DNA of 64,000 nucleotides from Sphingobium sp. (GCA_965279415.1 OZ257238.1:502925-566924); one strand, 5' to 3'; positions 15,097 to 64,000 are shown, counted from the stretch's first letter. Numbers and translations: made by a program. The notes: generated by a model from the letters alone, not told the origin.

Positions 15097-16650
15097 ATGG
15101 CGCTCCAGTGGACGGGGCGGCTGTCGCTGACGCGCCGCATTCTTGCGGTGAACATCTTTGCGCTCGCTTTGCTGGCAGGCGGCTTCTTCTATCTCGACAG
15201 CTACCGCACGCGCATCATCGATACACGGCTGGAGCAGTCGCTGCGGGAGTTGCAATTGCTGGGCATCGCGCTGGAAAGCACGCCCGACGACCAGCATAAC
15301 CGTTTAATCGCGGCTTTCTCGCGCAAGAACGACAGCCGCATCCGGCAATATCGCCGCGATGGCCAGTTGATCGCGGACAGCTTCGTCCTCGCGACGCCGC
15401 GCTACGAATTGCGCGATCCGGCCAGCGAGGACTGGCAGCGGCACGTCGCGCGCTTCCTCGACCGCGTGGTCGACCGGATCGTCTTTGCCCCGCCGACACC
15501 CTATTTCGTCGAGCCTGCGGTCGATCGGGCGCAGGCATGGCCCGAAGTGCTGGCGGCGCAACGCACGGGCAAACCGCAGGTGATGAACCGCTTCGCGCCC
15601 GATCGCACGCCGATGATCTCCGCCGCCCTGCCGACGCGCGGCGGCGACATGCTGCTGGCCACGGAAAATGCGCGCGACATCACGCGCGTGGTGCGTGCCG
15701 AAAGATTGCGCCTCGGCTTCGTGCTGGCCGCCGCACTGATGGGATCGACGTTGCTCTCGCTCTTCCTCGCGCGCACGATCGTATTGCCGCTGCGGCGGCT
15801 GGCGCGGGCTGCGGTGCGGGTGCGGCTGGGCCGGGCGCGCGAAGTGACGGTGCCGCGCCTGCCCGAACGACGCGACGAAATCGGGCTGCTGGCGCGCGCC
15901 CTGTCCGACATGAGCCATGCGCTGCGCCAGCGGATCGACGCGACCGACGCCTTCGCCGCGGATGTCAGCCATGAGCTGAAGAACCCCATCGCCTCGCTGC
16001 GCTCCGCGCTCGACGGGCTGGAGCGGATCGAGCGGCCCGACCTGCGCGCGCAATTGCTCGCCATCGCCAAGGACGACGTGCGGCGGCTCGACCGGCTGGT
16101 GACCGACATCGCCGAAGCCTCGCGCGTCGATGCGCAATTGTCGCGCACCCGATTCGAGCCGGTCGATCTGGGCAAGCTGATCGAGCAGCTGATCGTCGCC
16201 CGCGAAACGCGCGGCATAGAGCGCGACGTCCGCATCGCCTTCGCCCGTCCGCGCAAGGATGTGGCGGTGGTGATGGGCGAGGAGCAGCGGCTGGCCCGCG
16301 TGCTCGAAAACCTGCTCGACAACGCCATTTCCTTCTCCCCGCCCGGCGGCCTCGTCCAGATCGTAGCGACGGTGGCGAACGAGCAGGTGCTCGTCAGCGT
16401 CGAGGACGAAGGCCCCGGCGTTCCTACCGAAGAGCGCGAGACGGTGTTCCGCCGCTTCCACAGCGTCCGCCCCGAAGGCGAGCAGTTCGGCAAGCACAGC
16501 GGGCTCGGCCTCGCCATCGCGCGCAGCATCGTGGAGGGGCATCAGGGCCGCATCAGCATCGGCGACCGCGACGATGCGCAGCAGGGCGCTAGCTTCATCG
16601 TCCACCTGCCGATGGCGCAGGCCGCCGACCCCGGCATGGCTTCGGAATAG
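15097..16650 (+). CDS. chvG: Sensor histidine kinase ChvG
   Basis: ATG at 15097. It has two TM segments flanking a periplasmic domain, a HAMP domain, the H-box DVSHELKNPIASL, and the N/G boxes LLDNAISFSP and GLGLAIARSIVEGHQG. Confidence 0.85.
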   Translation: MALQWTGRLSLTRRILAVNIFALALLAGGFFYLDSYRTRIIDTRLEQSLRELQLLGIALESTPDDQHNRLIAAFSRKNDSRIRQYRRDGQLIADSFVLATPRYELRDPASEDWQRHVARFLDRVVDRIVFAPPTPYFVEPAVDRAQAWPEVLAAQRTGKPQVMNRFAPDRTPMISAALPTRGGDMLLATENARDITRVVRAERLRLGFVLAAALMGSTLLSLFLARTIVLPLRRLARAAVRVRLGRAREVTVPRLPERRDEIGLLARALSDMSHALRQRIDATDAFAADVSHELKNPIASLRSALDGLERIERPDLRAQLLAIAKDDVRRLDRLVTDIAEASRVDAQLSRTRFEPVDLGKLIEQLIVARETRGIERDVRIAFARPRKDVAVVMGEEQRLARVLENLLDNAISFSPPGGLVQIVATVANEQVLVSVEDEGPGVPTEERETVFRRFHSVRPEGEQFGKHSGLGLAIARSIVEGHQGRISIGDRDDAQQGASFIVHLPMAQAADPGMASE

Positions 16651-28947: not shown

Positions 28948-30633
28948 ATGCGGGGCATTATGAACAGCATGACGGGTGCGACACAGTTCGATCAGGCGAT
29001 GCAGGGCAGCGCCCCGATGACGAACGGCGGCATGGGCGACCCATCCATGGGCTTCGTATTTCAGGTCGCCGGATCAAGTTCGCAACTGCTGCTCGAAACC
29101 GCGTGCCTTGCCCATTACAGCCATGATACCGATCCTTCGATCGCGATGGCGGGGCAGGTCGGCAGCCAGGTCAAGATGCGCGTCGGCAGCAACTGGCTGG
29201 TCGCCAACGTCCGCGCCATGGTGCTCGACCGGCACGACCCGACGAAGATCGTCGCCGACATCGACTTTCTGGGCGAAGGCGACGAGGAGCGGCTGACCGG
29301 CAAGATCTACGGCTTCCGCCGGGGCGTCACCCGCTATCCCACGCCGGGCACCGACGTCTACCCCGTGTCCAGCGTCGAGATGAACCAGATCTATGCCGCG
29401 GACGAGCGCGCGAATGTTCAGATCGGCACCGTCTATCCCACCAAATCCACGCGCGCCGCGCTCTATGTCGATGCGATGCTGGGCAAGCATTTCGCGCTGC
29501 TCGGCTCCACCGGCACCGGCAAGTCGACCAGCGCCGCGCTCATCCTGCACCGCATCTGCGACCTTGCGCCGCAGGGGCACATCGTGATGATCGACCCGCA
29601 CGGCGAATATTCGGCCGCGTTCAAGACGAACGGCGCGATCTTCGACGTCAACAACCTCGCGCTCCCCTACTGGCTGATGAACTTCGAGGAGCATTGCGAA
29701 GTGTTCGTCACGTCCGAAGGGGCGGAGCGGACGCTGGATTGCGACATCCTCGCCAAGTGCCTGCTCGCCGCGCGATCGAAGAACCGCCTCGCCGAAAGCA
29801 CGGGGCGACTGACGGTGGATTCGCCGATCCCCTATCTGCTGTCCGACCTCACCAACATCCTCCAGAACGAAATGGGCAAGCTCGACAAGGGCACCAATTC
29901 GCTGCCCTATATGCGCCTCAAGACCAAGATCGACGAGATCAAGACCGATCCGCGCTACAGCTTCATGTTCTCCGGCATGCTGGTCGCCGACACGATGCAC
30001 GATTTTCTGGCGAAGGTGTTCCGCCTGCCCGCCAACGGCAAGCCGATCTCCATCATCGACGTGTCCGCCATGCCGTCCGACATCACCTCCACCGTGGTGT
30101 CGGTGCTGGCGCGGCTGGTGTTCGACTACGCCATCTGGGCGCGCAACGAACCGCAGCGGCCGATCCTCCTCGTCTGCGAGGAAGCGCATCGCTATATCCC
30201 CAGCAGCAAGACCGGCGGGGGGCAGGCGGTGCGCAAGATACTGGAGCGGATCGCCAAGGAAGGCCGCAAATACGGCGTGTCGCTGGGCCTCATCACGCAG
30301 CGCCCGTCTGACCTCGCCGAAGGCGTGCTGTCGCAGTGCGGCACGATCATCGCCATGCGCCTCAACAACGATCGCGACCAGGCCTTCGTGAAGGCGGCGA
30401 TGCCCGAAGGGGCGCGCGGCTTCCTCGATTCGATCCCCGCGCTGCGCAACCGCGAGTGCATCATCTGCGGCGAAGGCGTCGCCGTGCCGATCCGCGTGGC
30501 GCTCGACAATCTGGAACCTGAACGCCGCCCGGCATCCAGCGACCCCAGCTTCACCGACCAGTGGCGCGATTGCGGCGGCGAGAACGAGATACTGGAGCGG
30601 ACCGTCAACCGCTGGCGCAATCAGGGGCGGTAA
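28948..30633 (+). CDS. HerA-like / DUF87 P-loop ATPase
   Basis: Walker A LLGSTGTGKST, Walker B-like ILLVCEEAHRYIP, and ITQRPSDL. The start is uncertain: ATG 28948 or 28960. The listed ORF from 28366 runs through the upstream gene. Confidence 0.75.
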   Translation: MRGIMNSMTGATQFDQAMQGSAPMTNGGMGDPSMGFVFQVAGSSSQLLLETACLAHYSHDTDPSIAMAGQVGSQVKMRVGSNWLVANVRAMVLDRHDPTKIVADIDFLGEGDEERLTGKIYGFRRGVTRYPTPGTDVYPVSSVEMNQIYAADERANVQIGTVYPTKSTRAALYVDAMLGKHFALLGSTGTGKSTSAALILHRICDLAPQGHIVMIDPHGEYSAAFKTNGAIFDVNNLALPYWLMNFEEHCEVFVTSEGAERTLDCDILAKCLLAARSKNRLAESTGRLTVDSPIPYLLSDLTNILQNEMGKLDKGTNSLPYMRLKTKIDEIKTDPRYSFMFSGMLVADTMHDFLAKVFRLPANGKPISIIDVSAMPSDITSTVVSVLARLVFDYAIWARNEPQRPILLVCEEAHRYIPSSKTGGGQAVRKILERIAKEGRKYGVSLGLITQRPSDLAEGVLSQCGTIIAMRLNNDRDQAFVKAAMPEGARGFLDSIPALRNRECIICGEGVAVPIRVALDNLEPERRPASSDPSFTDQWRDCGGENEILERTVNRWRNQGR

Positions 30634-32267: not shown

Positions 32268-32353
32268 TGTTCCTGCGAAGGCAGGAACCCAGAGTAACGA
32301 CGAAGGCAAGAGCCTGCCCCCCACCCTGGACTCCTGCTTTCGCAGGAGAACGG
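32268..32353. repeat. Pair of inverted small hairpin repeats (family TTCCTGCGAAGGCAGGAACCCAG)
   Basis: GTGTTCCTGCGAAGGCAGGAACCCAG (32268..) and CTGGACTCCTGCTTTCGCAGGAGAACGG (..32353) are mutually inverted. Related copies are at 54999..55135. Confidence 0.6.
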
Positions 32354-54953: not shown

Positions 54954-54998
54954 ACCATAATCCGTGCCGTTATTGATGGTTATGGCGGCGTATAGCTT

Positions 54999-55135
54999 CT
55001 TGTTCCCCGGCGAAGGCCCGGGGTCCAGGGCAACAAGGATGTACTGTGCGACTCTGGACCCCCGCCTTCGCAAGACCTCTGCAAAAAGGGGAATAAGATA
55101 AAAGTCGTCGTCATTCCCGCGAAGGCGGGGGGGTA
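54999..55135. repeat. Three copies of the small CCCGCGAAGGCGGGGGTCCAG-type hairpin repeat
   Basis: The copies are TTCCCCGGCGAAGGCCCGGGGTCCAG, the inverted CTGGACCCCCGCCTTCGCAAG, and TCATTCCCGCGAAGGCGGGGGGG. They belong to the same family as 32268..32353. Confidence 0.6.
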
Positions 55136-55186
55136 TAGTGATAGATGGAATTATGCACGTCGCTGACCACACTAGCACTAACAGCC

Positions 55187-55720
55187 TTATGATGGACCGA
55201 CTTGTTCGCCATCGAGAAAGATGCGCCTGCCTTCCGGGCATTTGACATAAGAGAACCGCTTACCCTGATCATTAAAGGTGAGTGTATCGGCGGTTAGCTT
55301 GACGATTGGAAAGCGATTGACCTGACGAAGCGTAGTCACAGCAGGGGGAGCATCCGCATCTGCCGTTTCGTCCAGTTCATATTTCGATGTGGTGTCGCGT
55401 ACCAAAGTGGCATCTGTGATTTCCCACCGCCCTTCAACACCGCTAAACTCGTCACCTTCGGAAAACCTGCCGCTTGCGCTGTAAACCGCGCCATAGCCAG
55501 TGCCGCAACCGCCATCAACGGGTGCCCAAACACCAACAATCTTTGATGCCTCATCGGGGACATTTGGGCTGCTGCTGGTAACATGGCTGGATACAGCATT
55601 ATTCGCTTGAATAGCCAAATTCGGATTGCTGTTAATTTCCTGTCCGGCGTAGTAACCCGCTCCGGCAAGGGAAACCGCAAGCATAAATCCACCGATGCCA
55701 TATAGAAAGGGCTTACTCAT
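55187..55720 (-). CDS. Hypothetical membrane-anchored protein (177 aa)
   Basis: N-terminal TM helix (LYGIGGFMLAVSLAGAGYYAG). AT-rich codon usage. No family recognised. Confidence 0.5.
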   Translation of the reverse strand: MSKPFLYGIGGFMLAVSLAGAGYYAGQEINSNPNLAIQANNAVSSHVTSSSPNVPDEASKIVGVWAPVDGGCGTGYGAVYSASGRFSEGDEFSGVEGRWEITDATLVRDTTSKYELDETADADAPPAVTTLRQVNRFPIVKLTADTLTFNDQGKRFSYVKCPEGRRIFLDGEQVGPS

Positions 55721-55741
55721 AGCGTTGCTCCCACCCTGCTA

Positions 55742-56332
55742 TCAGAATTTCACTTTGCTTTCTGCCGCTGCCCGTCCCGGTTTATTCACTTTGTCCTCGT
55801 CCGTCCAAAGAACGCGGAAATCCAGAAGCGTCATTTCGAGGGACTTTGCACCTCCGTTATCCATGACCATTGCCGTCATCCACATAGTCCGGAAGGGATT
55901 GGCCTCGCCTTCGGGTGTGCGTACCTGTTCGATCAATTCCCATTCGTAAACACTGGCAGTGGTGCGGGCAGGAACGCCATATTTCGCAGATAGCTTATTG
56001 GCGAGTGTCGAACGAAAAGCATCATCTAAGGCAAATTGCCCAAGCTGCTGGCTGGACTGGATGCGATAAATGCGGCCAAGCGGCGTCACTTCAAAGTTGA
56101 AGTGCAACCCATCGCGCTCCGTTTCAAACTGGTATCCGCCAACAGATGTGATTGTCGATAGCTTCGCTGCCTCTCTAATAGGCATCCCCAACGCAAAACC
56201 GCCAATCTCACGCGATTTCGTTGCCGAAGCTATGGCGGGAGAATGCGTCGGCTGTCCTGTCGCTTCACCATATCCTAATGGCAATGCAAGAACGGAAACG
56301 GCCAATGCCGCTACGGCCAGATGCTTCTGCAT
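55742..56332 (-). CDS. Hypothetical secreted protein (196 aa)
   Basis: Signal peptide MQKHLAVAALAVSVLALPLG. No family recognised. Confidence 0.5.
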   Translation of the reverse strand: MQKHLAVAALAVSVLALPLGYGEATGQPTHSPAIASATKSREIGGFALGMPIREAAKLSTITSVGGYQFETERDGLHFNFEVTPLGRIYRIQSSQQLGQFALDDAFRSTLANKLSAKYGVPARTTASVYEWELIEQVRTPEGEANPFRTMWMTAMVMDNGGAKSLEMTLLDFRVLWTDEDKVNKPGRAAAESKVKF

Positions 56333-56424
56333 AAGGAATTATTCTCCATCAATTTCAGTAATCAGCTTTAATATGATGGATATAGGCAGTGGTTTAATGA
56401 CCGCTTAATTGGCGCTCTACGATC

Positions 56425-56694
56425 ATGCGTGGGCGTGATCTTGTCGGTAAAAATGTGCGGCGCATACGCGTTGCGCAGAATGTCTCGCAAGAACGCCTGG
56501 CTTTCGATGCTGGCGTGGATCGGTCCTATCTTGGCGGATTGGAACGGGGCGAGGAAAATCCCACAATAGATTTGCTTGAACGACTGGCAGCGACATTGAC
56601 CGTTCAGCTTCAAGAGCTTTTCATTGAGGTGCCGGATGACGATGCGTCATCGGGACTGCCGCGTGGTCGTAAAAAGGGCGGGCGTCCCGCTTGA
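56425..56694 (+). CDS. XRE-family helix-turn-helix transcriptional regulator
   Basis: The HTH_3 pattern is VGKNVRRIRVAQNVSQERLAFDAGVDRSYLGGLERGEENPTIDLLERLA. Its 3' end overlaps the convergent cas1-like 3' end by 48 nt. Confidence 0.8.
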   Translation: MRGRDLVGKNVRRIRVAQNVSQERLAFDAGVDRSYLGGLERGEENPTIDLLERLAATLTVQLQELFIEVPDDDASSGLPRGRKKGGRPA

Positions 56695-57771
56695 CTGTGG
56701 CGCGACGATTGCAGCGATCATTCTCGCCAATTGGGGTGATAGCCTGCAAACGCCATCGCTACGCAGAATGAAATCTGCGCCCGAAAATCTCTGGCTGCGT
56801 ATGAAAGCCAATATTGCCCGATCTACCAAAGGCCGTTCCGGTTCAATCTGATCGAAGATATAGGCAGGCAAGCCGCGTCGCCCGCTGTGCATCACGCCGA
56901 TTGTCGGATCATAGCCATCGGCAATCGCGGCAATCTGCAACTGTGCCTGTTTTACGGCATAGGCATAATTGAGCATTGCGTTGATGGGATGGGACGCATT
57001 GACGTTTTTGGGTTTCAGACCATTGGCGAGGGACGGACGACCTTCATAGTCTCCCCATGCCGGGGAGATCGGATAGCGTCCGGTGGATTTCCAGTTCAAA
57101 CGCAATCCGGCCCAGACGCCAAAATAGGCGCTGGCACAACTCGCTTCGATACCGCGCAATTGTTTGAGGTCAGCGGGCGGATTGCTGCTAAAGTCCGCAA
57201 TGGCGTTCTGCAATTTCTCTACAGCCCGTTGCCGCCGTTCGCTTGGTTCAAACGCAACTTCCAACGTATCTATGCAGTGGGCAAATTTGGTTCTGATAAG
57301 ATCGACTGAATAGGCCAATTGCGCAGCCCGGTCTTGCCCGGTTTCCATTTGCCAGAATATCTTTTCCCGGTCCCCGATAGTGCCGCTGCTACTTGCGACG
57401 GTAGCCACATCGCCGGTCCAGCTTATGCGGGCCAAGGCAACATTCTGTTCCGCCAGCCATGACAGCACATCGAACGACAAGGTGCCGCTGCCGTCCAGCA
57501 ACAGGATGCGAGGCGGTAGTGCAAGGTCGCCGCGAAAATAGCGATGTAGGGATTGCGTCTGCGGATGATGCGTAAACCCGTCACGAATAACGAGTGCGCC
57601 CTTTTCGATCCGCATCGAAACGCCATTGCCGCACAGGATCAAAGGGGTTGAATTGCGTTCGCGGCGTTTCCGCTTGGCGGGCAATTTTGCCAGTTCGGAA
57701 ATCCAGTTTTCCGACCGGATGGCCCATTCGTCGGTCGCTGCAACCTTGGAAAAATTGTCCAGTGTTTTCAT
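56647..57771 (-). CDS. cas1: Cas1-family integrase homologue (stand-alone, casposase-like)
   Basis: The N-terminal beta domain is GVSMRIEKGALVIRDG...LLLDGSGTLSFDVLSWLAEQNVALARISWTG. The catalytic-type motifs are LRGIEASCASAYF, ASHPINAMLNYAYAV and YIFDQIEPERPLVD. Start at ATG 57771; GTG 57792 is an alternative. Confidence 0.8.
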   Translation of the reverse strand: MKTLDNFSKVAATDEWAIRSENWISELAKLPAKRKRRERNSTPLILCGNGVSMRIEKGALVIRDGFTHHPQTQSLHRYFRGDLALPPRILLLDGSGTLSFDVLSWLAEQNVALARISWTGDVATVASSSGTIGDREKIFWQMETGQDRAAQLAYSVDLIRTKFAHCIDTLEVAFEPSERRQRAVEKLQNAIADFSSNPPADLKQLRGIEASCASAYFGVWAGLRLNWKSTGRYPISPAWGDYEGRPSLANGLKPKNVNASHPINAMLNYAYAVKQAQLQIAAIADGYDPTIGVMHSGRRGLPAYIFDQIEPERPLVDRAILAFIRSQRFSGADFILRSDGVCRLSPQLARMIAAIVAPQSSGTPALFTTTRQSR

Positions 57772-57837
57772 GTTCTCGACATAACAGATCACACGCGGAA
57801 TATCGCCGGTAAATCAGTGAATGTTCGATCATTAACC

Positions 57838-58761
57838 CTAAATTTCCGGGCATTTAACGCCCCGCCTAATGGCTAAAATACACTGTACGAATCGCATAGC
57901 TGGCCATGGACCCGTCGAAGTTTGTTTTGCCACAGAGTTTTGCATTTCCAGCATGGCACGAAGCGGGTTTGCTACATCCAAATCCGCGATATCCAGGCGC
58001 TCTGTCATCTGCGCTAATTGCCGCGGCATTCGCCCAATTCGGTAATTTAGCGCCCGTGCAATTCTAAACTCTCGCTGCGACGCATTTTTGATTTCGCTTT
58101 CGGCAGAGTCCTCAATTTCATCTTCGGTTCCCATGACGCCGGACCATAGGTTTGCGAGTCCTTCGATGCTGGCGCTGAATAGGGAAAGGTCGATACCGGG
58201 CAATATCTGTTCAGCCGCACTTTGCAAAAGTGTCGCGTTTTGATCGACGGCTGTTGCCTTTCCCTTGTGTGCCAATTCCGCGAAGGTTGCGTAGAAAGCA
58301 TCGGATTGCTGGAATGGCGTATCTATGAATCGGCTATCAAGCCGTCCAATTTGCGTCCGAATGGCTCGCTTTTGGGTTTGGCCCAAATCTGCGTAATTTT
58401 TATTGTCCATGTATGTTGTTCGACGATGCACCAATTGCGCCCGCCACTTGCCCAATTCTTTGACCAACGCTTCCCTCACACGATCAAAGTCAGAATGACC
58501 CCATTCAAGATATGCTTGCACGATCAGTTCATGTTGCCTGCGGACACCCCTCTTACGCAGTTCGGCTAATCGCATTGCCCTCCTCAATGAGGTTTCGGTT
58601 CGCGACCACTCCGGTCCCTTCCCATATACGCGCCCGATCGCTTTAGCTTTAGGTAAAATATCCCATGCCACCCATTGCCGAATGACATGGATGGTAAGTG
58701 CATCCGGTCCGGATAGTCCGGCCTTTTCATTGAGCAAGGCCGCAAATTCGCTGTTCGTCAT
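57838..58761 (-). CDS. Hypothetical protein (307 aa), first gene of the cas1 operon
   Basis: A clean ORF with the same strand as cas1, ending 66 nt upstream of it. No motif recognised. Confidence 0.55.
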   Translation of the reverse strand: MTNSEFAALLNEKAGLSGPDALTIHVIRQWVAWDILPKAKAIGRVYGKGPEWSRTETSLRRAMRLAELRKRGVRRQHELIVQAYLEWGHSDFDRVREALVKELGKWRAQLVHRRTTYMDNKNYADLGQTQKRAIRTQIGRLDSRFIDTPFQQSDAFYATFAELAHKGKATAVDQNATLLQSAAEQILPGIDLSLFSASIEGLANLWSGVMGTEDEIEDSAESEIKNASQREFRIARALNYRIGRMPRQLAQMTERLDIADLDVANPLRAMLEMQNSVAKQTSTGPWPAMRFVQCILAIRRGVKCPEI

Positions 58762-58844
58762 AGCAGCCCCTCGAAAGACAGCCTCACACAGATGCGTCTC
58801 GATTTGCGAGATTGGACTCCGGTTGGCGAGTCACAAATGCCGTC

Positions 58845-59414
58845 ATGGCACGCAAAAGAGACCATCGCCGGGAATATCAACGCCGCTTGGCCAATGCCGA
58901 AAAGCGCGGCCTAACCCGTTCGCAGGCTCGCGGCCATGCGAAGGCAGGCGAAAAGCCTGTTGGCAAACCTTCGACAAGGGACATGGGCAAGTTTGAAGCG
59001 GCCCTAAAAATCTACCGTCAGTCCGGCAATCGTGGTGCTGCGGCTAAGGCGATGGGCATTGCGCCGGAACGGTTCAGCCGGTTGCTAGCGGATACCGTGC
59101 AAGTATCGGGGCGCGGCAAATCGCTCAAAATCATCGACAACCGCCCTCGCGAAATGGCCGTCATCACCGATGGTCAAATGCGCCGGATCATCCTGCGCGA
59201 TTACGATCAGGCAGCGATCAATGGCGAGTATCTCAATGCCGCCAAAGCCTTTCTGGCATCCAACGATGACGAGGTGCTGCATCCCTTTGCAGGCCGATCA
59301 ATCGTGGACGCCAAGGGCAAAGCGCACCTCCTCGAAACCGACCCCAACATTTTACACCGGATTGCAGGGTCAGACGATCCGGCATTCCTCGAAATCTATC
59401 GCATTGTTCAGTGA
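58845..59414 (+). CDS. Hypothetical protein (189 aa) with basic N-terminus, first gene of the HNH-polB operon
   Basis: ATG 58845. It has the basic segment RKRDHRREYQRRLANAEKRGLTRSQARGH and a possible HTH (NRGAAAKAMGIAPERFSRLL). Confidence 0.55.
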   Translation: MARKRDHRREYQRRLANAEKRGLTRSQARGHAKAGEKPVGKPSTRDMGKFEAALKIYRQSGNRGAAAKAMGIAPERFSRLLADTVQVSGRGKSLKIIDNRPREMAVITDGQMRRIILRDYDQAAINGEYLNAAKAFLASNDDEVLHPFAGRSIVDAKGKAHLLETDPNILHRIAGSDDPAFLEIYRIVQ

Positions 59415-59427
59415 AAGGAGAAGCAAT

Positions 59428-59793
59428 ATGAATACGTTAGAATTGCGGAAAGAGTCTCGCAGGCAAGGCCGATTGGAACGGCTTGGCACTAATGATCCAA
59501 ATTGCGGCCTGTGTGGCGAGCATGATGACCGTTGCTTGGAACTGCATCATGTGGCCGACTATCGGCGCGATGACGGCACGGTAGTTATATGCCGGAACTG
59601 CCATCGTAAGGTGAGCGACGATCAGAAGGATCATCCCCGCTTTGATCCCGCTGCCGACCCGATGCTGGATCGTATCGGCCATTTCCTGTTGGGCTTGGCA
59701 GACCTGCTGCGCCTCATCGTCGAGAAGCTGATGGTCTTTGGTCATTGTCTGATCGAACGCGCCGCGCCCTCCAGCAAGGGAGAGGTGGCATGA
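59428..59793 (+). CDS. HNH endonuclease
   Basis: ATG 59428 with SD AAAGGAGA. The motif is CGLCGE...LELHHV...VVICRNCHRKV (CxxC..HH..CxxCH zinc/HNH pattern). Confidence 0.75.
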   Translation: MNTLELRKESRRQGRLERLGTNDPNCGLCGEHDDRCLELHHVADYRRDDGTVVICRNCHRKVSDDQKDHPRFDPAADPMLDRIGHFLLGLADLLRLIVEKLMVFGHCLIERAAPSSKGEVA

Positions 59794-62700
59794 CATATAT
59801 CCCGCCGATCACCGATCATCTGGCCGTCGCGATCCGGGCATTTACCGGACCACAGTTCACGGTCCTTGCTGATCCAAATGATAATAAACCCAAGTCGAAA
59901 AAAGCGATAGCGCCAGCGTCAGACTGGACGCTCGTTTTCGATACCGAGACGACAGCCGATGCCGCCCAAGCATTGCGGTTCGGCACCTATCAGTTTCGCA
60001 ATAAGGATGCGTTGGAAGAGGCAGGCATATTCTATGATCCCGATGGCGTGACCCCAACGGAACTGGAATGCCTGACAGCCTACGCCGATACCCATGGCCT
60101 ATGCCTGCGAACGCGGCAGAGTTTCGTGGACGATGTATTCTTTGCCCGCGCCTATCAACTTCGGGCAACGATTATCGGCTTCAATCTGCCCTTCGACATT
60201 TCGCGCCTCGCCGTCAGCCACGGAACGGCACGAACGCCGATTGCGGATGAGACGGGCACCTTGCGCGGCGGCTTCACCTTCAAGCTGTCGGAACAGAAAA
60301 TCTATCCCAACATTCGCGTCAAACATATGTCGCGGCGGGCGGCGCTGATTTCCTTTGCCGCCACGATGGGACAGCGTGACAGTCGCGGCCAACGCAACCG
60401 GGGCTTCAAAAGCCCGGTTCGGCGCGGCCATTTCATCGACGTAAAAACATTGGCCGGGGCGCTCTTTGCGCGCAGTTTCTCGCTGGCCAGCCTGTGCCGC
60501 TTTCTCAACGTCGAGCATCCCAAGCTGGACTTTGAGGATTTCGCAGCGCCGATCAGCGATGACATGATCCGCTATGCCGTTGCAGACGTGCAGGCGACAT
60601 GGGAATGCTACCGGGCAGCGCTGGCGCGTTTCGATCAGCTTGGTTTGCGCCAAGCCAAGCCCGAAAAAATCTACAGCGAAGCCAGCATCGGCAAAGCCTA
60701 TATCAAGGCGATGGGCATTCAGCCTTGGCGCACGATGCAACCGGATTTCCCACGCGATGTGCTGGCCAAGATCATGGGCAGCTATTTCGGCGGACGTTCG
60801 GAAGTTCGCATTCGTCGGGAAATGCGGCAAGTCATGCTCTGCGATTTCCTGTCCATGTATCCGACCGTCTGCACGTTGATGGGGCTTTGGCGCTTCGTCA
60901 TTGCTACGGGGATGACATGGCGAGATTCTACCGACGAAACCCGCTCGTTTCTGGACAGCATCGACTTGGCGACGTTGCAATCGCAGGATGTCTGGCAACA
61001 TCTGACTACGCTTGTTCGGGTGCTATCTGATTGGGACATTTTCCCTGTTCGTGCCGACTATGCGGAAAAGGGGCAGAACACGATTGGCGCAAATGCCCTG
61101 ACATCGGATACGCCATTGTGGTTCACTCTGGCGGATTGCATCGCATCCAAATTGCTGACGGGCAAGACGCCCCAAGTCATAGAAACGATCAGCTTCACGC
61201 CGGGGTCGCTGCAACCCAATCTTGAAGCCATCAATATCAGTGGCAATCCGGCCTATCGCGTCGATCCGAACGAAACGGATTTCTTCAAGCGCGTCATCGA
61301 ATTGCGTCAGACAATCAAACAAAAGCGCGATGCTGCTGATCCACAAGAACGCGATGTGCTGGACATCGAACAGAACGCCCTCAAAATTGCGGCCAATGCG
61401 ACCAGCTACGGCATATGGGTGGAAGTGAATGTTGATGTCCGGCCCACGCCATCCTCCGTGACGGTGCATAGTTCTACTTGTGATCCGTTCAGTTTCCAGA
61501 CCGACAAGCGGGAAAATCCCGGCACCTATTTTCATCCCTTGCTGGCCACGCTGATAACCGGCGCTGCTCGGTTGATGCTAGCGATCACCGAACGGCTTGT
61601 GACCGACGCAGGGCTGGATTGGACCTTTTGCGATACGGACAGCATGGCGATGGCCAAGCCCGACACGATGTCACCAGACGAGTTTGCGGAAAAAGCCAAT
61701 GCTGTCGTTACGTGGTTTGCGGCGCTCAATCCTTATGCGTTCGATGCGTCGATCCTGAAAATCGAGGATGTGAACTATGCCCTCGCATCGAACGAACCTG
61801 AACCGCTTTACTGTTGGGCCATTTCGTCCAAGCGATATGCGCTGTTCAATCTGGACGCCAATGGGCAACCCATCATGCGCAAGGTATCTGCGCATGGCTT
61901 GGGGCATTATCTGCCGCCCTATGACGATGCCGACGCGCCACCGGATTTTCCGGTGCCTGACAAGTCCGTCCTGAAAGATGGCACGTTACGCTGGCATTGC
62001 GACCTGTGGCATCAAATCGTCACCGCTGCGATAGCCGGGTATCCCGATCAGGTGGCACGAAACTATCATCCGGCGATGAGCCAACCGGCGCGCAGTCGTT
62101 ATGCCGCGACCTCTCCGGACCTGTTGCGATGGTTCAAATCCTACAACGTCAATCGGTCTTATCGCGATCAGGTCAAGCCCTTCGGCTTCATGCTGGCGTT
62201 TAGCGAACAGCAGAATCATGCAGCGGAAAGTGTCGTTACCTCGGCAAAGAAGGGGAGGCCAAAAAAGGCTACCGCGATCAAGCCGATTGCACCCTTCGAG
62301 AGGGACAGCGCGAAAGCCGCTGCAATGGCTTTTGATCGGGTGACGGGAAAAGCTGTTCCAGCTTCAAGCCTGCGCACTTATGCCGATGCGCTTTTCCAAT
62401 ATCATATCTCGCCAGAAGCCAAATTCCTGAATGGCGATTATCTGGACAAGGGCATCACGCAGCGGCGGCATGTGTATATGGCAAACGTCCACCACATCGG
62501 GAAGGAGGCGCATGATTGGGAGCGCCACGCCATGCTGGGGACAAGTGCCGATGGTGAAATCAGCTATGGCAATCGAACCAACATAATCGGGGCAGTGTCA
62601 GCACTGATCGTGGAATTTGGCCATGTGCCAACAGCCAAAGCGTTTGGGGTGTCATCACGGCAATTAACGGCGGCAGTGCGTGATGCGCCTGAAAGCGGCA

Positions 62701-62897
62701 AAAGTCGTATTGCGTCCAGTCTGACGGTCAGGCTTCCCAAGGTCGTCAAGACATTGCGGCAAGCGGCGGCGGCTAAACGAAAGGAAGTGCGGCACCTTCG
62801 TGCTTTGGTTGATAACTATGGGTTGCGGGAAGCTGCTCGCCAAGAGGGATTAGACCCGTCAAATCTGAGGCGTAGGATTGCGCAAAGAAAGCTGTGA
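59790..62897 (+). CDS. polB: Family-B DNA polymerase with 3'-5' exonuclease domain
   Basis: The start overlaps the HNH stop (ATGA). ExoI is VFDTET (59937..59954), ExoII GFNLPFDISRL, ExoIII YAVADVQ. Pol motif A is DFLSMYPT (60842..60865), B is KIAANATSYG (61383..61412), C is FCDTDSM (61626..61646), and KxY is SSKRYALF. Confidence 0.85.
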   Translation: MTYIPPITDHLAVAIRAFTGPQFTVLADPNDNKPKSKKAIAPASDWTLVFDTETTADAAQALRFGTYQFRNKDALEEAGIFYDPDGVTPTELECLTAYADTHGLCLRTRQSFVDDVFFARAYQLRATIIGFNLPFDISRLAVSHGTARTPIADETGTLRGGFTFKLSEQKIYPNIRVKHMSRRAALISFAATMGQRDSRGQRNRGFKSPVRRGHFIDVKTLAGALFARSFSLASLCRFLNVEHPKLDFEDFAAPISDDMIRYAVADVQATWECYRAALARFDQLGLRQAKPEKIYSEASIGKAYIKAMGIQPWRTMQPDFPRDVLAKIMGSYFGGRSEVRIRREMRQVMLCDFLSMYPTVCTLMGLWRFVIATGMTWRDSTDETRSFLDSIDLATLQSQDVWQHLTTLVRVLSDWDIFPVRADYAEKGQNTIGANALTSDTPLWFTLADCIASKLLTGKTPQVIETISFTPGSLQPNLEAINISGNPAYRVDPNETDFFKRVIELRQTIKQKRDAADPQERDVLDIEQNALKIAANATSYGIWVEVNVDVRPTPSSVTVHSSTCDPFSFQTDKRENPGTYFHPLLATLITGAARLMLAITERLVTDAGLDWTFCDTDSMAMAKPDTMSPDEFAEKANAVVTWFAALNPYAFDASILKIEDVNYALASNEPEPLYCWAISSKRYALFNLDANGQPIMRKVSAHGLGHYLPPYDDADAPPDFPVPDKSVLKDGTLRWHCDLWHQIVTAAIAGYPDQVARNYHPAMSQPARSRYAATSPDLLRWFKSYNVNRSYRDQVKPFGFMLAFSEQQNHAAESVVTSAKKGRPKKATAIKPIAPFERDSAKAAAMAFDRVTGKAVPASSLRTYADALFQYHISPEAKFLNGDYLDKGITQRRHVYMANVHHIGKEAHDWERHAMLGTSADGEISYGNRTNIIGAVSALIVEFGHVPTAKAFGVSSRQLTAAVRDAPESGKSRIASSLTVRLPKVVKTLRQAAAAKRKEVRHLRALVDNYGLREAARQEGLDPSNLRRRIAQRKL

Positions 62898-63067
62898 TCA
62901 GCTTACACGGTGTCCTTCATACGAACCTCCAAACCGGATGCATCTATATTTTGGTTGCTATCAAATTAATGCATTTTCGCACTATACAATCTATCAAAAT
63001 TGAAAATATAACAAAGCCTTACGGATTTCCTTTGTTTGCAGGGGAGCCGTGGAACGGGGGGCAATAT

Positions 63068-63844
63068 ATGGCAGATTTTTTACGGTTGTTGGCCGGTCAC
63101 ATCACCCGTCGAACCTATGCAGTAGGGGTTATGCTTCTGATCTCCAGTTGTGGCCAAGCGAGTGGGCAGAATTATCCGCCGTACCGCTATCGCCTCACCG
63201 TGGAAGTGGACACGCCGTCGGGTCTGCGGACTGGATCGAGTGTTATTGAGGTTCGTACTTTCGTTGCTGGGAAAAACGCTATTCCCAGTCCGGGTCAAGT
63301 GTTCCATCGTGTGACCGGAGAGGCTGTTGCTGTTGATCTGCCGGGCAATCAGAGGCTCTTTGCCTTGCTGCGTTCGGAAGAATCCTATGACTGGGCCTCC
63401 GGGGTTTTGGCGGCGCAGACAGAGCCTATTACAGTCAAGGAAACGCTCAGGATGCGGAAAGAGGGTAAAGACCCTTTTGACGAAAGGATGCGCCGCACGC
63501 TTACTTTGACCGGCGTGCATGTACTGCCCCGTTGGCAGCGTCCCTCCAAAGTCAAGGCACAAAATATGCACCGTATCAGCGGCTATCCTATTCTTGCCAG
63601 GTTTCGTGATATTCGCGATCCAAAGACAGTTGGGCTGGTTGATCCTGATAATCTTGACGTGAGTTTCGGGCAAGGCGTGTCGCTTCGGCGAATTACTGTC
63701 GAACGAACACAAGCCGCCGTGACAAAGAGCATTGACAGAAAGTTGCCTAGCTTTGGCCCAGAAACAGGCTTTAGCACTTGGCTAAAAAAATTGCCGTTCA
63801 GTGATGAACGCAGGCAAATAGTTGATAGCTTTAGGCGGAGATAA
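63068..63844 (+). CDS. Hypothetical lipoprotein (258 aa)
   Basis: ATG 63068 and the lipobox-like MLLISSCGQ. AT-rich. No family recognised. Confidence 0.5.
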   Translation: MADFLRLLAGHITRRTYAVGVMLLISSCGQASGQNYPPYRYRLTVEVDTPSGLRTGSSVIEVRTFVAGKNAIPSPGQVFHRVTGEAVAVDLPGNQRLFALLRSEESYDWASGVLAAQTEPITVKETLRMRKEGKDPFDERMRRTLTLTGVHVLPRWQRPSKVKAQNMHRISGYPILARFRDIRDPKTVGLVDPDNLDVSFGQGVSLRRITVERTQAAVTKSIDRKLPSFGPETGFSTWLKKLPFSDERRQIVDSFRRR

Positions 63845-63848
63845 AAAC

Positions 63849-64000
63849 ATGAACGACAATGTCATGCGAGCAATTCTCGCAATGGATTCTTATAACCGTA
63901 GCTATGGACAAGGAATAAACGGAATATCCGACTCTTCGATGGTTGGGAATGCATCTGTAATAAAAGATTCAAGCATATTTGAAATTGATGATCAAAGAAT
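63849..64000 (+). CDS. Hypothetical protein, N-terminal 50 aa only (continues beyond window)
   Basis: ATG 63849 lies 2 nt after the upstream stop codon. The frame is open to the window end (MNDNVMRAILAMDSYNRSYGQGING...) and very AT-rich. Confidence 0.4.
   Translation, partial: MNDNVMRAILAMDSYNRSYGQGINGISDSSMVGNASVIKDSSIFEIDDQR

Follow-up and report, generated by a model that had tools for sequence, protein, structure and literature searches.

A probable family-3 casposon in a sphingomonad chromosome and its possible preference for short palindromic targets

What kind of element encodes a Cas1 homologue and a family-B DNA polymerase (PolB) with no CRISPR array in view? The question is raised by the right-hand end of a 64,000-nt stretch of DNA from Sphingobium sp. 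(GCA_965279415.1 OZ257238.1:502925-566924), which was analysed over its full length and is called the window here. A family-3 (bacterial) casposon has very probably inserted into this sphingomonad chromosome, and positions 55130-64000 of the window would be its left 8.9 kb. The gene content, the left terminal inverted repeat (TIR), the homology of the Cas1 to that of the casposon HenMar-C1, the fold of the polymerase model, and the TIRs and 15-bp target-site duplications (TSDs) of related elements are all directly seen. They support the casposon interpretation put forward in a first-pass annotation that was made from the sequence alone. That annotation also regarded the class as already known, and rightly, as family 3 includes alphaproteobacterial elements and has had a member from the Sphingomonadales since 2016 (PMC4779613). 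What our analysis adds to the known class is the exact left end, the size of the family, and the proposal of a palindrome-centred target with a fixed 15-bp duplication.

The Cas1 homologue is the predicted casposase, the integrase of the casposon, judging from its sequence. Profile searches support the Cas1 call, with matches to PF01867 (E 2.5e-29) and TIGR00287 (84.6 bits against a cutoff of 71.7), and none of the subtype-specific CRISPR Cas1 models in NCBIfam reached its cutoff with this protein. The Cas1 of HenMar-C1, a founding member of casposon family 3, is 44% identical to it over 315 aa (E 2e-98), by the sequence that Krupovic et al. 2014 (PMC4046053) give in a supplementary alignment. 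When the sequences in the PDB were searched, the top match was 6OPM (E 2.4e-16) and the best CRISPR Cas1 followed at 1.3e-11. The database label of 6OPM reads Cas1; we take it to be the casposase of Methanosarcina mazei. As seen in that match, the similarity to the family-2 casposase is local only. Residues E216, H302, D314 and E317 are invariant in a 20-member Cas1 alignment that includes HenMar-C1 and a homologue from the Fimbriimonadaceae, and this catalytic E/H/D/E set aligns with the motifs of casposases and of CRISPR Cas1 proteins. The protein ends about 20 aa past the Cas1 domain and has no fused helix-turn-helix (HTH) or zinc-binding domain. Its reading frame has a GTG start; an alternative start, the ATG at 57771, would give 374 aa.

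The second core enzyme is a polymerase of a divergent kind. Its motifs are Exo I FDTET, Exo II NLPFD, Exo III YAVAD, A DFLSMYPT, B KIAANATSYG and C CDTDS, and in 32 homologues the key catalytic residues of these exonuclease and polymerase motifs do not vary. The AlphaFold model has a mean pLDDT of 66 and a pTM of 0.61 and is confident in the exonuclease, palm and fingers regions. Compared with the PDB by Foldseek, it matched 189 chains at E <= 0.001 (best 1e-10), and the best 50 of the 189 are all PolBs. Fold matches support the PolB call, together with a Pfam score at threshold that is weighed below. The C-terminal helices are HTH-like. Motif C names the PolB_CDTDS cluster, a divergent group of PolBs that contains the polymerase of the A. 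boonei casposon (Kazlauskas et al. 2020, PMC7544198), and so ties the polymerase of the window to casposons.

The element starts where the base composition changes. From about 55000 to 64000 the GC content is 0.50-0.58 in each 1-kb step, against mostly 0.61-0.69 in the preceding 15 kb, where local dips to 0.55-0.59 occur near 48-51 kb. This profile bears out the low-GC stretch of at least 8.9 kb described at first pass, and the start then given for it, 55140, lies within 10 bases of the element end at 55130. At 55130, where GC drops, stands GGGGTATAGTGAT, its single exact match in the window. The host genes to the left are bacterial and encode a GGDEF-EAL sensor, a DUF3034 protein and a globin-like protein. 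From the predicted target site to the end of the window the features are these:

55115-55129, no strand: predicted left copy of the target site, TCCCGCGAAGGCGGG, with the hairpin CCCGC-GAAG-GCGGG; intergenic, downstream of the globin-like gene
55130-55171, plus strand: left TIR, consisting of GGGGTATAGTGAT, 22 nt and GACCACA
55187-55720, minus strand: cargo gene, 177 aa, with a hydrophobic N-terminal segment; no family match
55742-56332, minus strand: cargo gene, 196 aa, with a signal-peptide-like N-terminus; no family match
56425-56694, plus strand: XRE/Cro-type HTH regulator, 89 aa (PF01381 HTH_3, E 2e-13)
56647-57792, minus strand: Cas1 homologue (predicted integrase), 381 aa, GTG start (PF01867, TIGR00287)
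57838-58761, minus strand: 307-aa protein with an N-terminal MerR-like HTH; open reading frame (ORF) upstream of cas1, in a variable slot
58845-59414, plus strand: conserved 189-aa core protein, first gene of the polymerase operon
59425-59793, plus strand: HNH-type nuclease, 122 aa (PHROG families and a CxxC...HH...CxxCH motif)
59790-62897, plus strand: family-B DNA polymerase, 1035 aa (motifs and fold), with a 3'-5' exonuclease domain
62894-63844, plus strand: cargo gene, 316 aa, GTG start; the ATG at 63068 is the likelier start and gives a lipoprotein-like N-terminus (LLISSC)
63845-64000, no strand: continuation of the element, with the right arm and right TIR beyond the window end

This layout agrees with what had been read from the sequence. 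Both ORFs of the claimed minus-strand pair (the 307-aa gene and cas1) are present, as are the 189-aa, HNH and PolB ORFs of the divergent plus-strand set, in which the PolB ATG overlaps the HNH stop (ATGA), and the XRE regulator is real. As for the secreted or lipoprotein cargo, hydrophobic N-termini and, in one gene, a lipobox-like LISSC can be seen, judged by eye only, and none of these genes matched a family. The reported absence of CRISPR repeats, cas2, effector genes and recombinases stands for the visible part and its tested ORFs. There is no CRISPR array in the window (no Rfam match, no spaced direct repeats), and the scanned ORFs of the visible 8.9 kb contain no cas2, effector, recombinase or transposase domains, the unseen right arm lying outside the scan. 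Scans with Pfam, NCBIfam and PHROGs also gave no capsid or packaging genes in the visible part, and no tRNA gene adjoins the island.

How common is this arrangement? A scan of species-representative genomes gave 12 loci. Nine of the 12 carry the same module, with Cas1 on the minus strand, a variable gene, the 189-aa gene, HNH, and PolB on the plus strand. The hosts of the module are Sphingomonadales, Hyphomonadaceae and one member of the Fimbriimonadaceae. Four elements are complete: L010 (10.5 kb), L004 (11.1 kb), L005 (13.8 kb) and L008 (14.0 kb). All four have TIRs at both ends, as does a deleted derivative, L009. The ends of L004, L005 and L010 have the same terminus as the window and a 22-nt spacing to GACCAC(A), an arrangement also found at more than 100 metagenomic ends; L008 has a variant terminus, GGGATATAGTCGC. 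The TIR of the window fits the family at fixed positions, with the 13-nt terminus, the 22-nt spacing and GACCACA. Published casposon termini are similar, GGGGTATGTT in NitAL212-C1 and GGGATATAGG in family 2. In all, the family comprises more than 2,600 PolB clusters and more than 1,700 Cas1 clusters, mostly from sphingomonads and with database names such as "hypothetical protein" or "CRISPR-associated endonuclease Cas1". No PolB homologue was found in PLSDB, and so no plasmid-borne copy there.

The visible element measures 8.87 kb, and complete relatives are 10.5-14 kb long and end within about 2-4 kb downstream of PolB. Since no inverted copy of the TIR occurs before the window ends at 64000, the window cuts the element. 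Of the TIRs and TSD that the first-pass annotation proposed to look for, the left TIR is seen here and both TIRs and the TSD are seen in relatives; the right end lies beyond the window. A second TIR-like match, at 30188, was rejected as a chance occurrence inside a 755-aa ORF.

Several relatives merit separate mention. Database records include proteins identical to the Cas1 and PolB of the window (P0121 and P0241), and a second pair, P0132 (Cas1, 68% identical) and P0001 (PolB, 91%), is recorded apparently in the same chromosome. It may be that two casposons reside there, their modules having diverged unequally or been exchanged. L009 (9700-12318) is the 2.6-kb deletion derivative, with both TIRs and a PolB fragment of residues 184-771 only; it may be a non-autonomous casposon. 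The Fimbriimonadaceae member (L008:1562-15576, flank 15577-15725) comes from a different phylum. Its insertion point is the 3' end of a transfer-messenger RNA-like sequence, which scores 20.3 bits with RF00023, below the gathering score; a tRNA target at this site was considered and dropped, as ARAGORN finds none. At the right junction of L005 (16673-16700) there are eight C rather than four between CTATA and the TSD, and the extra C suggests slippage or filler at integration.

The complete relatives are flanked by direct duplications of the target. The TSD is exactly 15 bp in four genomic elements and also measures 15 bp in three metagenomic pairs, which were read by eye from their flanks:

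L004: CCGGATCAAGTCCGG, exactly 15 bp
L009: CCGGACTTGATCCGG, exactly 15 bp
L010: CCCGGCCCGGAAGGG, exactly 15 bp
L008: ATGGTGGAGGTAGGG, exactly 15 bp
L073/L080: CCCCATGAAGGGGAG, metagenomic pair, read by eye from flanks
L054/L088: CTCCCAAGGGGAGAG, metagenomic pair, read by eye from flanks
L026/L078: CCGGAACAAGTCCGG, metagenomic pair, read by eye from flanks

In the window only the left copy is visible, and the length and position assigned to it follow the exact 15 bp of the relatives. In the casposons studied so far the TSD is 14-15 bp, and tandem insertions have been described for those of Methanosarcina. A similar case is found in L028 (30-70), where two ends stand back to back with a 15-bp gap, ATCACTATACCCC|GGCAGCTGACTGGCC|GGGGTATAGTGAT. 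One copy of the target is shared in this tandem insertion.

To what kind of sequence do these elements join? Metagenome contigs scanned with the TIR pattern gave at least 120 loci, which together with the genomic loci and the window provided 109 non-identical outer flanks. A perfect hairpin of at least 6 bp abuts the junction in 52% of the 109 flanks, compared with 6% of control GGGG sites and 3% of shuffled sequences. Watson-Crick pairing of flank positions peaks sharply at a centre of -8.0, with 61% there and about 26-31% at distant centres, and -8.0 is the middle of the 15 duplicated bases. The flanks are enriched in C from -17 to -14 and in G at -1 and -2, so that in many cases the stem is lengthened by the G4 terminus of the element. 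Palindromes of the GTCACCCCGGACTTGATCCGGGGTCC type recur in unrelated contexts (L003, L004, L005, L007, L009 and many metagenomic contigs), and another copy of this type in L009 has no insertion. In several other flanks the stem is preceded by an A-tract, the pattern that an intrinsic terminator would show on its opposite strand. The hairpins could have been part of the TIR. This was rejected, as the hairpins differ between close relatives and their loops are in direct orientation on both sides; the direct loops mark the hairpin as target DNA.

From these flanks we somewhat favour the view that the sphingomonad branch of family 3 picks a structural class of target, short GC-rich palindromes like repetitive extragenic palindromic (REP) elements or intrinsic terminators, and not a unique genomic site. 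With similar, slight confidence we propose that the strand-transfer points are symmetric, 15 bp apart around the dyad, and that in the commonest target class the G4/C4 ends extend the stems of both copies. Published work places bacterial casposons in intergenic regions and says no more of their targets, and the A. boonei casposase has been reported to recognise the palindromic T-arm segment of tRNA-Pro. In our literature search we found no paper that connects casposons with Sphingomonas, nor any that connects them with REP or terminator targets.

Palindromes occur elsewhere in the window too. A hairpin similar to the target of the window, TTCCTGCGAAGGCAGGAA, stands at 32270-32287 with no insertion. 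The intergenic stretch between the globin-like gene and the element end (54954-55129) has several segments that resemble GC-rich palindromes, such as CCCCGGCGAAGGCCCGGGG near 55006, and may be a cluster of REP-like repeats. Some metagenomic ends belong to a different TIR sublineage, GGGGTATAGTGATATCCGCCGGATTAGTCGCGA..., represented on one side by L041, L068, L102 and L103 and on the other by L077, L089, L108 and L109; its flanks have no hairpin. The end in L068 is about 80 nt upstream of a LexA-like gene, and a PpiD/SurA-like gene is in the neighbourhood of L108. This sublineage looks like a site-specific branch.

The remaining genes of the element differ in how well they are kept. The HNH gene is present in all related loci that span its position. 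Its protein matches the PHROG HNH endonuclease families (E 3.6e-5 and 1.5e-4) and, weakly, the HNH region of IscB, which is weaker evidence than for the other gene calls. The 189-aa gene is likewise found in all 10 related loci spanning its position, at 33-68% identity (L011 is partial at a contig edge), and has 301 database homologues, all named hypothetical. It has no match in Pfam, NCBIfam or PHROGs. Its structural model (pLDDT 81) has three helices and a beta-hairpin at residues 44-97, typical of winged-helix domains; against the PDB there was no significant fold match, and the weak ones are mostly winged-helix regulators. On this model the protein is probably a winged-helix DNA-binding protein, and it is probably the "conserved HTH protein" of family 2 and 3 casposons. 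The slot upstream of cas1 is variable. The 307-aa protein has no match in Pfam, NCBIfam or PHROGs. Distantly related proteins with an N-terminal MerR-like HTH occupy the slot in L001, L008 and L010; the L001 counterpart is 33% identical, and the one in L010 shares the N-terminal motif only and has a borderline MerR_1 match (20.9 bits). L004 and L005 have an unrelated plus-strand gene there.

The XRE gene adjoins cas1 also in L004 (61% identity) and L005. In the window the two genes are convergent and overlap by 48 nt (56647-56694). L004 and L005 share this layout, a hint that casposase expression may be controlled by antisense or occlusion. The cargo ORFs of the window have no match in Pfam, NCBIfam or PHROGs and are not kept in relatives, and the cargo arms are entirely different between elements. 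L005 encodes a serine recombinase, two ParB/RepB proteins, an AAA_21 ATPase and a DNA methylase; L008 an SMEK-domain NTPase, a radical SAM protein and a kinase; and L010 a transglycosylase and LprI.

Among known systems the closest are the bacterial casposons. When casposons were defined in 2014, those of bacteria made up family 3, among them HenMar-C1 of Henriciella marina, an alphaproteobacterium (PMC4046053). Elements of Hyphomonas and Citromicrobium bathyomarinum joined the family in 2016; the host of CitBat-C1, the Citromicrobium element, belongs to the Sphingomonadales (PMC4779613). HenMar-C1, HenMar-C2, HypCY54-C1 and CitBat-C1 likewise encode PolB, HNH and a conserved HTH-like protein and are intergenic in a bacterial host; the likeness to CitBat-C1 is by published description. 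The HenMar-C1 Cas1, like that of the window, has no fused HTH or zinc-binding domain, and the published cargo of HypCY54-C1 (ParB/RepB and serine recombinase) resembles that of L005. The element of the window differs from this group in host and in cargo, with two secreted-looking proteins and one lipoprotein-like protein. The ends also differ, as those published for HenMar-C1 are a 37-nt TIR and a 1-nt direct repeat, whereas here there is a GGGGTATAG terminus with a 15-bp TSD. The reported 37-nt "TIR" of HenMar-C1, CCCCCTCTCCCGGATCGGGAGGGGATAAGGG, begins with a GC-rich palindrome like the targets described here (PMC4046053 supplement). This palindromic stretch may be target DNA rather than part of the element; a single mismatch in its loop fits an inverted repeat slightly better than a palindromic TSD.

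The family-2 casposons of archaea (AciBoo-C1 of Aciduliprofundum boonei and those of M. mazei), which are the ones studied by experiment, share the core of Cas1, CDTDS-type PolB, HNH and HTH. They also have the terminus GGGATATAG, as in L008, a TSD of 14-15 bp, and tandem insertions sharing one target copy. Unlike the Cas1 of the window, the family-2 Cas1 has a C-terminal HTH; the hosts are archaea; and the targets are tRNA 3' ends or specific intergenic sites, not generic GC-rich palindromes. REP elements are the target of the insertion sequences IS1397 and ISKpn1, which insert into these short palindromic extragenic repeats and so avoid gene disruption. These sequences are about 1.5 kb long, encode unrelated DDE transposases and have no polymerase, so the likeness to the element of the window is one of target choice only. 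In CRISPR spacer integration by Cas1-Cas2, a homologous integrase makes a staggered attack around a short, often palindromic sequence that becomes duplicated, the repeat there and the TSD here. That system has Cas2, an array, a leader and 30-nt spacers, none of which is seen here, where the integrated DNA is an element of 10-14 kb.

How secure are these readings? A number of points weigh against them, both for the identity of the element and for its target. The right TIR and the second copy of the TSD lie beyond the window, so the completeness of this copy is judged from its relatives. Its place in family 3 is proposed from pairwise identity and gene order. The polymerase scores 23.2 bits with PF00136, for which the cutoff is 23, a threshold-level match that we attribute to its belonging to the divergent CDTDS-type cluster. 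A single-sequence search of the PDB gave weak matches only, in the motif-B region, and a profile of 32 PolB sequences gave nothing below E 0.01 there; the polymerase call depends on its motifs and a mid-confidence model. Regarding the target, about half of the flanks are without a perfect 6-bp hairpin, and the flanks of the GGGGTATAGTGATATCCGCCGGATTAGTCGCGA sublineage are orthologous between contigs (68-84% identity) at a non-palindromic site. The target in the window, TCCCGCGAAGGCGGG, has a modest 5-bp stem and folds to -6.3 kcal/mol (z -1.8). Cross-comparison of the flanks of 132 loci and the window brought up no empty site, only duplicate contigs and one orthologous site-specific lineage. 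By our reading of PMC8464041, little is known outside family-2 casposons, and family-3 casposases appear to be biochemically untested.

The same observations can be read in other ways. The island could be the remnant of a casposon, its right end lost or immobile, that is now a fixed genomic island. We consider this unlikely. The window shows no right end, deleted derivatives do exist (the 2.6-kb L009 with its PolB fragment), and four extra C stand at the right junction of L005; yet the Cas1, 189-aa protein, HNH and PolB of the window are full length compared with their homologues, the catalytic residues of Cas1 and PolB are intact, the left TIR fits the family pattern at its fixed positions, and the second, diverged Cas1/PolB pair is apparently in the same chromosome. 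A different PolB-encoding element that had picked up cas1, such as a pipolin (with primer-independent PolB and a tyrosine recombinase) or an integrated linear plasmid or virus with inverted terminal repeats, would account for a polymerase so divergent from standard PolBs, for the presence of the phi29 polymerase among the fold matches, and for the serine recombinase and ParB/RepB genes of L005. We regard this as very improbable. The visible island has neither of the pipolin features, a tyrosine recombinase and an adjoining tRNA gene, nor any capsid or packaging genes, and the linkage of Cas1 to the PolB operon is strict in all three bacterial lineages. The first-pass annotation had named a boundary of att sites as the alternative, but the island starts at a casposon-type TIR, and short TIRs with a 15-bp TSD, as its relatives have, are the hallmark of transposition by a Cas1-type enzyme rather than of recombination at att sites. 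The polymerase shares its CDTDS motif C with casposon PolBs, and ParB with a serine resolvase is published cargo of HypCY54-C1.

Least probable of all, to the point of being nearly negligible, is a stray orphan cas1 from a CRISPR system that came by chance to lie in a low-GC island. The public names of its homologues include "CRISPR-associated endonuclease Cas1", and TIGR00287 is passed. Against this, the window has no array, cas2 or effector, no subtype-specific Cas1 model was reached, the nearest characterised relatives are casposases, and relatives have the TIR/TSD structure. A family-3 casposon remains the reading that we prefer.

The steps of its movement, the use of its polymerase and the roles of the accessory proteins can be sketched by analogy to the archaeal casposons that have been studied. 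Cas1 would join the 3' ends of the element (GGGGTATAGTGAT...GACCACA) to target phosphates staggered by 15 bp, and gap repair would duplicate those 15 bp. The element-borne CDTDS-type PolB would copy the element. The HNH nuclease and the 189-aa DNA-binding protein probably aid end processing or recognition, and the XRE protein probably keeps the element quiet. The target would usually be a short GC-rich intergenic palindrome, in this case the hairpin of TCCCGCGAAGGCGGG downstream of the globin-like gene.

The CRISPR adaptation machinery has been proposed to descend from casposons. To our knowledge, casposons have so far been studied biochemically in a few archaeal elements only, and the family-3 casposases of bacteria are untested. 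The present family numbers thousands of clusters in soil and water metagenomes, with apparently two copies in this chromosome, and lives in mesophilic bacterial groups with many cultured members. If the targeting proposed here is true and has not been described, it would be that of a natural Cas1-family integrase that duplicates a short palindrome with each insertion and is able to build tandem arrays, as in L028, behaviour that matches what is postulated for the ancestor of the CRISPR repeat. It would also explain the abundance of this branch, casposons being thought rare in bacteria. The parts are sharply defined, as the end sequence has 42 nt, the duplication is fixed at 15 bp and the target is a simple palindrome. 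With its size and its hosts, these parts would make the family a practical system for learning how a Cas1-type integrase reads a palindromic target, which bears on the origin of CRISPR repeats.

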